DNA of 64,000 bases. It comes from Azolla caroliniana (lineage: Eukaryota; Plantae; Polypodiophyta). The position numbers and the translations under genes were made by a program. Of this stretch, positions 7,274-64,000 are shown in pieces. Each line of letters opens with the position of its first letter. Position 1 is the first letter of the stretch. Location: the NCBI GenBank assembly GCA_043228905.1, contig JBHGNT010000004.1, forward strand, positions 1,798,001 through 1,862,000, written 5' to 3'. The notes beneath the pieces are model-generated. The model was not told the DNA's origin and ran no database searches. It saw nothing but the letters and a program-made list of their open reading frames with translations.

Positions 7274-8030
7274 TGTCGCGTTGTTACGCGCGTGCGTGTA
7301 GAAAGGCGGGACCATGGGGGTCCTGGACTAGGGAGTGACGGAGCGCAGGAAGTCGTGCTTCACCCTCTCCGGGGCACCCCAGGAGCACACCGGAAGCAAC
7401 CGAATGAGAGAGAGAAAGAGAGGGAGACAGAGAGGGAGCGCGCACTTGACGCCGACTCACACACACACACACACATGCCGACCCGACTCACGCCCTTATG
7501 TGTAGGAACGCAGGAAAGGGGAAGCACCCGACACCAACAGAGACACACATATACACAGACAAACGCAAATGTATGTATTACAAGGGAAAGAATACAACCC
7601 CCGGCTTCGAGCAAGACCAACCTAGGGTAGGTTACAACAGCAGTCTGCAGTCAAGCCACCGTCCGGGGAGCTCTCGGGCTCGTCACGTAGAGCGGGGTCT
7701 TGCACAGGAGACCGAACAGGAACAACCCTCCACAGTCCACCCACACCGCGAAGAAGAGGAAGAAGAAGTAGAAGAACTAACCCTAAATCTAACGGTATAC
7801 CCTCTAACACAAAATGGGCAACCCCTCTACAAGGGACCATCCCTTCCTTTTATAGAACAAGGAGAGGGATGCGTTACAATGTGGGATAAATCCCGATTTA
7901 CATAGGATTCTTCGTCTCGACTTGACTCCTATTATTCACACAATTACATGAGGGTGAGTGCACATGGTGCACCCCGCCGATGTAGCCAATATTTCCCGGT
8001 TTCCGCCTCTGGACGAAATTCTTCACGACA
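7274..8030 (-). repeat. 5' LTR of element 2 (~757 bp)
   Basis: Minus strand begins TGTCGTGAAG and ends TGGTCCCGCCTTTCTACACGCACGCGCGTAACAACGCGACA, matching both ends of the solo LTR. CTATAAAAGG TATA box near 7850. Confidence 0.85.
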
Positions 8031-12706: not shown

Positions 12707-12968
12707 AGGGAAAGCAAAATGATAGAAAGGGGAACCTAGAATCGAAACCCTAAAACAAAATAGGGAGAATAAGTAAAACCTTAACGGTCTACCTCAAAAT
12801 GACAAAATGGCGACCCCCTCACCCCCTTTTATAGTGGAAAAGGGTGATGCTTATTATAAACAGAGAGGCCAAATATTACTCTCTTTTCGAAGAAGAATAT
12901 TTGCCTTAATCTTAGGAAGAGAGATTGGTGGGGCCTTAACTCCCTCTCCTCTCATTTTCCCTCACACA
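12707..12968 (-). mobile_element. Truncated older LTR fragment of the element-2 family
   Basis: The reverse complement aligns by eye with the solo LTR around 8915-9080 (GGGAGTTAAGG..CAATCTC..AAGGCAAATAT..CTATAAAA..CCATTTTG). It abuts RLK intron sequence at ~12974. Confidence 0.7.
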
Positions 12969-13043
12969 ATAATGATCAAAGTATCTCCAAATATATATAC
13001 CTAACGTATATTTTCCTATTCGGATTTTGGTCATTTGAAATAG

Positions 13044-15428
<2,385 letters not shown>

Positions 15429-36865: not shown

Positions 36866-44156
<7,291 letters not shown>

Positions 44157-45989
44157 TCTCAATGGACTTGCATGCATAAATAATGTATGCATGCATCATG
44201 TATATATTATACCATACATTCACGATCATATGAATGTATATATTAGTATATACCATATATCCATGCAAAATAATGAGCAATGATGATCGTGCGAGAGTGT
44301 CGATCATATGTGCAACACAACATGACATAAAAACTTAAATTGGTTGACTTTTGAGTTGGAGTCGTCGGAATAGCTCTACTTGCTTCTCTCCTAGGTGCTC
44401 GGAAACATGGATTATTATTGAGTCCCTACCACTCCATGCCATATTTGACTTACTTCTCTTTCAATATTATATTGTTATGACACTCTCGCAAGTACATTCT
44501 ACCTGATTTTAATTTATAAGTTCCTGGCTAAATGTACTTCCCATGCTAGCATATGAATCCCTAAATTGATTTACATTTTGTTACTCTCTTGTATGAGAGC
44601 TTAGACAAAATCATATGATCTCCAAAATTGTTTCACCCTGTTAATGAATGGTAAATAAGATTTGCATGTATTGTATTAATTATTGTTCCCACTTTTGTAA
44701 TCTCACTTGCAATGGCCATTTTCAATTTTGCCAATCACTTGATTCTCCTTTACCTTTTGCATAACCCACCCTGGTCCCTCATCATTCAAATGGTTTGTGT
44801 GCGTGTATCATACGAAAATAAATACTTCATGACATGATTGATTTTGTTAATGAGCACATATGGGATGAGTTAATCATTGTTCTAAGGTGCAAAGACATTA
44901 TAAACACGCATGTCGTTTTTACAAGTGACAACTAATTACCTAATGGTTCGGCTAATAGTTAGCTAATATCCAACTTGTTATTTAATGATATCTAATTTGT
45001 TGTTTAACTAAAACTAATTAGCTATTTAATGCTAGCAATGTATAATAGTGAATGTTAGCTTATTAATTATGCGCTATGCATAAGCTAATAACCTTTGAGT
45101 AATTGCTAATGTAACTATTTAACTATAATAAAAATTTTACAATGATAAGATTAATAAGAGAAAGTGAGATTATTGTTACAGTATTCGTTATGAATTAGCT
45201 AATTAACTATGGCTAAAAGCTAATATAACTAATAGGTAATTCATTAACATAAGCTAATAAGTTAATGTTAAGCAATAACTATTGATGCCTTCTTATAAGA
45301 TACAAATTTTAATAATTAATTAACTGCTAACTAATTACACTAATAATCATTTTGTTTAAACAATACAATTCCCTATAAATGGAATATTGTAAATACCCTA
45401 ATGATAATTAATAGTTATTGTAGCTATTAGCTATCAAAGGCCAATGAAGAATAGCTAATTGATAAGTGTAGATGCATGTTTGCATAGATTAGAAATACCA
45501 ATAGTGAATCAAGAAGGTGAATTGGATGCTCCTTGTATCCACTCCTTCCAAAACATTTCTTGCACAAATCCTTACAAGTGATAACACGCTCTCATTAGTT
45601 TAGAAGATGATGATTATATCCTTGATCTCTATGTCATTGGCTTACATCTTTGGAGCGATTGAAACCTCACAATTAAACTTCTTCAATCTAGACCATATGC
45701 TTAGATTGCATAATGAAACATTAGCATGTTGCAATGTCAAGCTCAATTCTTTGAAGGTCAGGGATGGGAGTAGTGGAATCATGCTCCAACCATCAAGCTT
45801 TTACATTAAACTTGTTAATTTACAAGTGAAAATCAGGTTAGACACCAAAAGTAGAAGAAAAACGTGATCAATGCTAGTAGTAGATCCATGTATGGAGCAT
45901 GTCCATATATATAATGCGAGAATTTGGCACCATACAATGAATTCCATGCATACAGGAAAAATGGCGATTCTAGTGATGGGATTTAACTT

Positions 45990-46032
45990 ATCCCACATGC
46001 AAACATTTCAAAATGAACAAACCCTATAAATG
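45990..46032 (+). promoter_or_regulatory. Plant snRNA-type promoter (USE + TATA) with Pol III spacing
   Basis: ATCCCACATGC at 45990-46000 (plant USE consensus RTCCCACATCG), a 24-nt spacer, then TATAAA at 46025-46030. Confidence 0.6.
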
Positions 46033-46054
46033 AAAGGGAGAAGATACAGTTTTC

Positions 46055-46155
46055 ACAGCTGTGAGGAGGTCGGTGCATTGCAGCCATAGCCCGGCTGCGT
46101 GATTACCTTTGATTCTACATGAAAGCATCATGGCACCCGATTCTGAGCTCATTTT
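46055..46155 (+). ncRNA. Candidate orphan box C/D-type small RNA, independently transcribed
   Basis: Box C variant GTGAGGA (46061-46067), box D CTGA (46143-46146), AGC/GCT terminal stem, internal helices, TTTT at 46152-46155. GC-rich relative to its flanks and directly downstream of USE/TATA. Confidence 0.55.
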
Positions 46156-46476
46156 GCTGCCATAATTATTATATACAGGCATCGCCAGTAAATGCATTAG
46201 AATTTAGGACAGTGGTACTCTAATTTTAAGGCGCTACTGCTCATCTGAAAATCTCGTGTATGAGAGATAACTATTGCTTAGTACTGTGACTAATCCGATC
46301 ATCTACTAACCCTCCTCTAATTTAACTACCTTCTTCTGCCACAAAATATTCGTATATACTTCCACTTGTTAAGAAAACATTGTGATTTCTCCATGTAGAA
46401 GAAAGAAAAACACTCAAACAACAAGGAAAACGCTGTGACCTAATATGGAATGATTGATTGATGGGAGAGGACAGGG

Positions 46477-46586
46477 AAAAAAATTTAATTTGGACCATTC
46501 CTCAATTTGTGCATGTCATCCTTGCGCAGGAGCCATGCTAAGCTTCTCTGTATCGGTCCAAATTTATCAGATGTCCCCGAAGGGAC
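46477..46586 (-). ncRNA. U6: U6 snRNA, divergent copy or pseudogene
   Basis: Minus strand GTCCCTTCGGGGACATCTGATAAATTTGGACCGATACAGAGAAGCTTAGCATGGCTCCTGCGCAAGGATGACATGCACAAATTGAGGAATGGTCCAAATT followed by a T7 tract. ACAGAGA box and AGC triad intact; about 8 differences from plant U6 as I recall it. Confidence 0.93.
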
Positions 46587-46949
46587 AAAGCAATTGTCTG
46601 ATTCCTTGAAGTAGGAAGCCTTAATCTCTTCATAGACTTGATTTGGTGCAACGTGCTAATGGAAGCATGTTTTTGTTCTAATTACTGTATGTGCCATATA
46701 TCTAACATACTTGATGTTCGGGTCCTATTGAGACCATAATCAGTTTATCGATTAAAATCCTTAAATAATAGAGAATGGTGTGAGTTCATTGAGTTAATCC
46801 GACACATTAATTCAACCCTAGAGAGAATTGAAGTTGCTTACTATGTGAATAGCAACAATTCACTAGATCAATGTGACCTCACATGGACATTCCCTTCCAT
46901 AAAACATGTGTTATTCTATCGATGATAATGCTTTTCCGAGCTCATTTAC

Positions 46950-48357: not shown

Positions 48358-55778
<7,421 letters not shown>

Positions 55779-61070: not shown

Positions 61071-64000
<2,930 letters not shown>

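Follow-up and report, generated by a model that had tools for sequence, protein, structure and literature searches.

To our knowledge, U3 is the only land-plant box C/D RNA known with a type-3 Pol III gene of its own. In C/D particles, the kink motif of the RNA binds Snu13/15.5K, followed by Nop56/58 and fibrillarin. Other stand-alone C/D RNAs with a structured interior are plant U13 and yeast snR45 and snR4. The plant U13 orthologues snoR105/108/146 are presented, in the part of PMC2875012 that deals with them, as capped RNAs of ~130 nt whose USE + TATA genes have a Pol II configuration. The U13/snR45/snR4 type combines a 5′ guide before box C with a loop guide, both complementary to 18S (sections of PMC5464676 and PMC2875012); for instance, snR4 serves ac4C in 18S helix 34, where its bipartite guides flank the target C (same section of PMC5464676). 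In Ostreococcus, Ot-CDsno69 is an intergenic, monocistronic, capped RNA that ends in a T-stretch and is proposed to be a Pol III product in the relevant part of PMC7671301.

The locus described here lies in a 64,000-nt stretch of the Azolla caroliniana genome, referred to below as the window (Table 1). Our preferred reading, to which we assign a probability of roughly 0.6, is that it belongs to a conserved, U6-clustered multigene family producing a ~95-nt Pol III RNA, which would form a structural, non-guide C/D particle possibly serving U6; this figure covers the conserved gene, its transcription by Pol III, C/D assembly and the absence of an aimed methylase. Like plant U3 (RF01847), the genes are monocistronic and of C/D type, with USE and TATA, a start 67 nt past the USE and a T-run; both RNAs have two kink-turn motifs, neither appears to be a methylation guide, and both occur in multicopy arrays in this genome. 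However, U3 measures ~235 nt against 93 nt here and has a 5′ domain with rRNA-pairing boxes that the family lacks, the two share no sequence similarity (p 0.49), and the U3 genes lie on C3, C5 and C107, whereas the family sits beside U6. The earlier note on this DNA could match the unit neither to U3 nor to U13, and our results agree: no Plant_U3 match occurs here and the true U3 genes are elsewhere, while the predicted start, itself inferred, falls only 4 nt before box C, and no conserved complement to helix 45 was found, which separates the unit from U13/snR45. The 5′ guide, the loop guide, the 18S complement and the other U13 features were not found in the family, and of the bipartite snR4 guides for 18S helix 34 some copies have a one-sided 7-nt match with nothing on the other side. 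The order and spacing of boxes C, D′, C′ and D and the terminal stem are those of canonical C/D methylation guides, but the family has no conserved antisense of at least 10 nt, its D-side strand is paired internally, and it has its own promoter where canonical guides come from a polycistronic precursor. Ot-CDsno69 resembles the family in its intergenic position, its monocistronic C/D gene and its terminal T-stretch; it differs in being single-copy and 124 nt long, with a long 5′ extension and a predicted 25S target, and P2 and P3 could not be seen in it by eye.

Table 1. Features of the RNA gene and its surroundings, in window coordinates
Feature	Position	Strand	Remark
USE ATCCCACATGC	45990..46000	+	RTCCCACAT core common to U1-U6 and U3 genes of the same genome
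TATA box TATAAA	46025..46030	+	24 nt past the 11-nt USE; 24 nt in 21/22 family genes
Predicted RNA, ~97-99 nt	46057..46155	+	core 46057-46149, then CA and U-tail; model score 95 bits
P1 terminal stem, 5′ strand AGC	46057..46059	+	pairs with GCT 46147-46149
Box C GTGAGGA, non-canonical	46061..46067	+	
Helix P2, 5′ strand GGTGCA	46072..46077	+	partner 46132-46137; 5 bp in window copy
Hairpin P3 GCAGCC-ATAGCCC-GGCTGC	46080..46098	+	stem and loop both conserved
Box D′ TTGA	46109..46112	+	in 19/22 copies
Box C′ ATGAAAG	46119..46125	+	predicted K-loop with D′
Helix P2, 3′ strand GGCACC	46132..46137	+	sits at D-guide position
Box D CTGA	46143..46146	+	20/22 copies; predicted kink-turn with box C
T4 run, candidate Pol III terminator	46152..46155	+	T>=4 within 20 nt of 3′ end in 19/22
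Degenerate promoterless U6 snRNA copy	46484..46586	-	RF00026, 87.7 bits; tail-to-tail with the RNA gene
~960-bp cassette	45651..46611	.	piecewise 70-93% homology to U6 + RNA clusters on C7, C21 and C491 (blastn)

The 93-nt unit running from AGC to GCT has 53% G+C in a surrounding region of 30-38%, and its predicted 5′ end is inferred from the 67-nt distance to the USE common to U3 and U6. The promoter, box, stem and terminator elements named in the earlier note are all present at the positions it gave, with the initial AGC at 46057-46059 rather than ~46055, and the sequence also bears out the hairpin GCAGCC/GGCUGC and the lack of T4 inside the unit, which is followed by CA and then TTTT. The layout is that of a box C/D RNA, as had been proposed, with boxes C and D lying close to the 5′ and 3′ ends, respectively, and closed off by a short terminal stem, and internal D′ and C′ boxes are present as well; this C′/D′ motif, the multigene family and the linkage to U6 had been overlooked. 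A "second arm" reported earlier forms in the predicted fold of the window copy but surrounds the C′/D′ motif, and pairing of the linkers around D′/C′ across copies is weak (permutation p 0.03-0.06, stems of 2-7 bp), so that a conserved fourth helix was rejected. For the RNA as a whole, the prediction is a C/D kink-turn at the ends, a helix in the center, a hairpin, and a kink-loop formed internally by C′/D′. A search for USE + TATA as a regular expression gave two matches in the real window, one of them inside a repeat, and none in 300 block-shuffled windows. The folding energy of the window copy alone is unexceptional (z = -0.81; 36 of 200 shuffles fold equally well), and since a single copy folds no better than shuffles, the case had to rest on comparison.

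Rfam at gathering score reports only U6 in the window, and at E<=10 it gives four noise matches across 45800-46400 and nothing else on the unit. The homologue contigs yielded noise and two partial sR44 matches of 18-20 nt, which score 13-16 bits where the cut-off is 45, and scans of the RNA clusters found U6 and no other family. The Rfam search, which had been suggested as a check, thus leaves the unit without a matching family. We found no description of this RNA in the open-access literature, and it probably represents an undescribed RNA gene family. A plant telomerase RNA was considered and rejected, as the 93-nt unit has no CCCTAAA-type template and a type-3 transcript of more than 200 nt would be expected.

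A DNA search of the same genome returned 11 matches, and the pattern USE + TATA + box C returned 20 in its 523 Mb against 0 in the reversed control. All 20 lie at six places, namely the window and five clusters, of which C7 carries three and C21 and C491 one each; the C491 cluster has the same layout as the one at C7:18.59 Mb and may be a second haplotype. A covariance model built from 16 copies and run on 251 kb of fetched DNA gave 41 matches, of which 24 score at least 64 bits, a further 11 have E<0.001 and 6 are weaker; many of the weaker ones are broken (17 of the 41 are weak or broken), and 23 of the 24 strong matches have a USE 66-69 nt upstream. The model search covered fetched DNA, so copy numbers are floors and the family has at least 24 strong copies. 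Within the clusters, a 3.4-kb tandem unit (L038-L039, C7:18.455-18.469 Mb) carries one intact family gene and one promoter-damaged copy, together with a U6 promoter behind which U6 itself breaks off after ~19 nt, and in one family copy (L044:5681-5831, minus strand) 63 nt of the 5′ part are internally duplicated in tandem. Outside this genome, the pattern matched metagenome contigs three times: two are true homologues (L055, 95 bits; L054, 89 bits), both with the same USE, and the third (L053, 9.7 bits) was dropped as chance; a decayed 44-bit copy was also present. The two homologues are 88% identical to the nearest copy of this genome, so the conservation described here is between close homologues, perhaps of a single lineage. 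The pattern search gave no match in viral contigs and four in prokaryote genomes, none above 11 bits.

The alignment comprises 22 distinct strong copies, 20 from this genome and 2 from metagenomes, after setting aside two exact duplicates, one C491 duplicate and the internally duplicated copy; pairwise identity ranges from 61 to 99%, with a median of 71%. Identity reaches 93% in the terminal stem, 89% in box C, 89% in D′, 77% in C′ and 93% in box D, and 86% in helix P2, 80% in the P3 stem and 79% in the P3 loop, compared with 50-65% in the linkers. Box C reads UGAGGA in 12 copies, UGAAGA in 8, and UGAUGA and UGAGGG in one each, so the canonical form occurs in only 1 of 22, with GA invariant; box D is CUGA in 20 of 22, D′ is UUGA in 19 of 22, and C′, 6-9 nt from D′, is UGAAGA in 12 of 22 and UGAAAG in 4 of 22. 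P1 and stem II are paired in 95.5% of cells; for all 20 modelled pairs together the share is 92.7% of 440 cells, against 31-43% in slid controls. Compensatory changes in homologues, another check suggested by the earlier note, were found at four pairs altered on both sides, two of them among the six P2 pairs, although these amount to six cells among related paralogues, and the shuffle control (4/500) gives no probability for related sequences.

Selection on the window copy itself can be judged from its paralogues and the U6 copy beside it. Compared with its two closest paralogue types, it differs at 1/57 and 3/57 core positions and at 9/36 and 10/36 linker positions, with the reservation for the Fisher tests that the core was partly chosen from the same alignment; three additional comparisons drawn from the metagenome copies and those of this genome gave one significant result. 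The adjacent U6 copy differs from intact U6 at 10 of 103 letters and has no USE upstream, and it looks as if the window copy has been selected while this U6 decayed. We consider it very probable that the unit is a real, selected RNA gene.

To assess the promoter, we compared 74 genes of this genome, comprising the family, U6, U3 and U1/U2/U4/U5. The USE core RTCCCACAT is common to the family and to the U1-U6 and U3 genes; the earlier note would have doubted the promoter had U6 and U3 used a different USE, and both have this core at the same 67-nt distance. All 22 family copies have the USE, with the start 66-69 nt downstream and at 67 in 17 of them, and USE and TATA stand at a fixed distance, as in type-3 promoters. 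The start follows the USE by 67 nt in U6 (10/14) and U3 (7/7) and by 65-66 nt in U1/U2/U4. The family USE is ATCCCACAT, the U2/U5 variant, and GTCCCACAT is found in 13/14 U6 and 7/7 U3 genes. USE-TATA spacing is 24 nt in the family (21/22), 21-23 nt in U1/U2/U4/U5 (31/31), 22-24 nt within a longer TA run in U6, and 26 nt in U3. The Pol II spacing of 32-34 nt, which the consulted part of PMC8287931 reports for Arabidopsis and generalizes to vascular plants, is absent among the snRNA genes examined here; short spacing in non-seed plants may already be contained in Figure 6 or the supplements of that paper. The earlier contrast of ~24 with ~33 nt does not distinguish Pol III from Pol II here in its textbook form, and the spacing argument for Pol III is weak because U1/U2/U4/U5 also have short spacing, with only 1-2 nt between them (L078-L105) and the U6/U3-type genes.

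The choice of polymerase rests on the T-runs, the absence of internal T4 and this offset of 1-2 nt, which together make Pol III transcription of the family likely. A run of at least four T begins no more than 20 nt after the 3′ end in 19/22 family copies, 7/7 U3 and 14/14 U6 genes, and in 0/31 of U1/U2/U4/U5. Internal T4 occurs in 1/22 family copies, leaving 21/22 free of it, and in 13/13 U2, 2/2 U4, 6/6 U5 and 0/10 U1 genes. Five or more T are found in only 9/22 family copies, three have no T4 nearby, and the window copy has only T4. Contigs from two sequencing runs presumed to be RNA, compared with L036:4000-8900, covered neither of the two gene copies in that interval, which counts neither for nor against transcription.

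We searched for targets in 18S, 5.8S, 25S, 5S, ITS, ETS/IGS, U1-U6, U3 and, among the tRNAs, the tRNA-Pro arm of the same genome. The best duplexes before D or D′ have 7-13 bp at scattered sites in rRNA, ITS, U1-U6 and U3, and shuffled guides cover the same range, 82 of 141 reaching at least 9 bp on 7 kb of RNA. No 9-mer complement is common to eight or more copies in 18S, 5.8S, 25S, ITS, ETS/IGS, U1-U6 or U3, alignment to U1-U6 and U3 in sense and antisense does not go beyond shuffles (best p 0.10), and conserved antisense of ~10 nt or more at D or D′ was not found in the RNAs scanned. The first reading of this DNA had seen no convincing long rRNA complement and had set the unit apart from ordinary methylation guides, and both points hold, with no conserved guide in rRNA or spacers and the D-adjacent strand base-paired within P2. 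A methylation guide with a hidden target, in which P2 opens and the pre-D strand pairs with the tRNA-Pro anticodon arm, 5S or another RNA, nevertheless has some points in its favor. Human SNORD97/SCARNA97 guide tRNA-Met methylation (see PMC6601510), the C/D and C′/D′ motifs are both kept, about half of the copies have a run of 8-11 pairs with the tRNA-Pro(UGG/CGG) arm (8 perfect in the window copy), and 9 of 22, both metagenome copies included, form nine pairs (2 G.U) with 5S nt 81-89 immediately before box D. However, these matches are of chance length, as the shuffled guides indicate, and were found after the fact, which is why tRNA-Pro and 5S were rejected as targets. Moreover, 13 of 22 copies leave three box-D-adjacent bases unpaired to tRNA-Pro, where at most two are tolerated according to a passage of PMC5464676, the window copy lacks the 5S match, and P2 shows equal conservation on its two strands, with the 5′ strand changing along with the 3′ strand (L046:8101, L049:7442). 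We regard this explanation as unlikely. More doubtful still is a role like that of U3, U8, U13 or snR4, as a chaperone of pre-rRNA or a guide for acetylation, toward which the earlier note leaned: the family does have its own type-3 promoter, as in U3 and plant U13, a structured interior and 6-7-nt complements to 18S helix 34, but box C has no 5′ extension, no 9-mer shared by at least eight copies is complementary to 18S, 5.8S, 25S, ITS or ETS/IGS, and neither snR4 nor U13 guide elements, as described in the available parts of PMC5464676 and PMC2875012, are present. With no 5′ extension and no conserved rRNA complement, the proposed U13/U3-type role finds no support, and the earlier interpretation is upheld for an independently promoted C/D-type gene while its spacing argument and its chaperone or acetylation role are not.

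About equally improbable is that the family is the diverged orthologue of a snoRNA already known from plants or algae but absent from Rfam or beyond its reach. Rfam is limited to curated families, plant orphan C/D RNAs such as snoR6, 28, 106, 107, 133 and 149 are listed in Table 2 of PMC2875012, and the account in PMC7671301, as far as consulted, makes Ot-CDsno69 a precedent for a capped, T-ended C/D RNA; against this, Rfam at E<=10 over the unit gives noise only, snoR133 and snoR149 belong to polycistronic clusters in the consulted part of PMC2875012, and Ot-CDsno69 is set apart by its length of 124 nt, its 5′ extension and its lack of P2/P3 by eye. The least probable alternative holds that these are passengers or selfish transcribed repeats, amplified with the U6 arrays and devoid of cellular function. 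The 17 weak or broken model matches, the co-duplicated flanks and the unremarkable single-copy fold would fit such a view; yet change falls on the linkers and spares boxes, stems and promoter, even in the window copy beside a decayed U6, pairs change on both sides, and the copies, with 20/20 matches at six places, are not dispersed. A SINE or snoRNA retroposon, which would be dispersed, lack an upstream promoter and end in an A-tail, was rejected, as the copies occupy six places and have retained both the promoter upstream and their flanks. Ranked together, a role with U6 or U4/U6 comes first, followed by a hidden tRNA or 5S target, then a chaperone and a diverged snoRNA side by side, and absence of function last.

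The preferred reading, a structural C/D particle that does not guide, can be laid out as a series of steps. USE, TATA, boxes, stems and T-run are kept in 22 copies while the linkers drift. SNAPc/TBP would recruit Pol III, with the start at 46057 and the stop in the T-run, and the RNA would need no processing from a precursor, as in plant U3. Its two G.A/A.G motifs would each bind Snu13/15.5K, then Nop56/58 and fibrillarin. Because P2 sequesters the strand with which box D would guide, and because the D′ strand lacks conservation, the methylase would have no fixed site in rRNA or snRNA. Finally, and this is the weakest step, the exposed, conserved hairpin P3 may dock a partner; on the strength of the co-amplification of the family with U6, we tentatively suggest U6 or U4/U6 maturation, which shares Snu13. 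Still more speculative is the full combination, in which the family is a second Pol III-made, U3-like C/D particle of ferns that is encoded at high copy beside U6, acts through a hairpin instead of a guide and serves U6 or U4/U6 maturation, in a lineage where the 10-bp spacing rule has ceased to govern whether snRNA promoters use Pol II or Pol III.

The link to U6 was mapped for 26 genes (24 strong and 2 weaker promoter-bearing) against 20 of 48 U6 matches. The distance to U6 is at most 2 kb for 15, at most 5 kb for 19 and at most 13 kb for all 26; conversely, a family copy lies within 5 kb of 13 of the 18 best U6 genes, and there is none near 11 other U6 loci, of which 5 are intact. U1 pairs with U2 in a similar fashion, and tRNA, U5, U3 and 5S genes are also arrayed, from which the family appears to be organized like a housekeeping RNA of this genome. 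Since other RNA genes form arrays too, the linkage to U6 may be historical rather than functional. The family does not align to U6 above shuffles in sense or antisense (p 0.10 and 0.28), and although a stretch resembling U6 had suggested that the family derives from it, this was rejected at p = 0.10, with the other snRNAs at p 0.19-0.96.

If the preferred reading is true, the family would be a second multicopy, target-less C/D family, tied to U6, and a class of small RNA in plants not represented in Rfam. It would offer a clean case for the role of orphan C/D RNAs that are unable to guide, and a hairpin-based particle serving U6, if confirmed, would represent a new functional class of C/D RNA. 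The Pol II-type spacing of 21-23 nt found here, against 32-34 nt in Arabidopsis (PMC8287931, in part), makes the choice of polymerase testable by swaps of 1-2 nt, and short spacing also matters for choosing guide-RNA promoters in ferns.

Several further elements were observed along the way. A repeat in the window (7830-7887, minus strand), also found at L056:6580 (minus strand), carries ATCCCACAT, then 22 nt, then TATAAAAG, a geometry that matches the U1/U2 promoters of this genome; it is likely the LTR of a retrotransposon. Near U6 loci, a USE followed after 24-25 nt by TATA occurs at L062:9048 and L058:5951 (both plus strand) with no Rfam family downstream, the former followed by a G+C-rich stretch of ~200 nt, and such elements could be other type-3 genes or decayed promoters. 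The window also contains four protein-kinase exon fragments (12860-13396, 40988-41317, 50561-50947 and 63463-63843) in a region of repeated multi-kb duplications, with the RNA + U6 cassette between two of them. Elsewhere, tandem tRNA arrays (L106-L161) hold many decayed copies (Lys, Arg, Thr, Ile, Pro), and the 5S genes form a separate 590-bp array outside the 45S unit. Ot-CDsno69, besides its 5′ extension, has by eye a 9-nt complement to the 18S helix-45 sequence, judging from the part of PMC7671301 consulted, and may be the algal counterpart of U13. A plastid-type stretch (L120) has tRNA genes and two reading frames, identified as psbZ and petN, in the order trnS, psbZ, trnG, trnC, petN. This order fits the derived arrangement of core leptosporangiate ferns given in the relevant part of PMC3098776.
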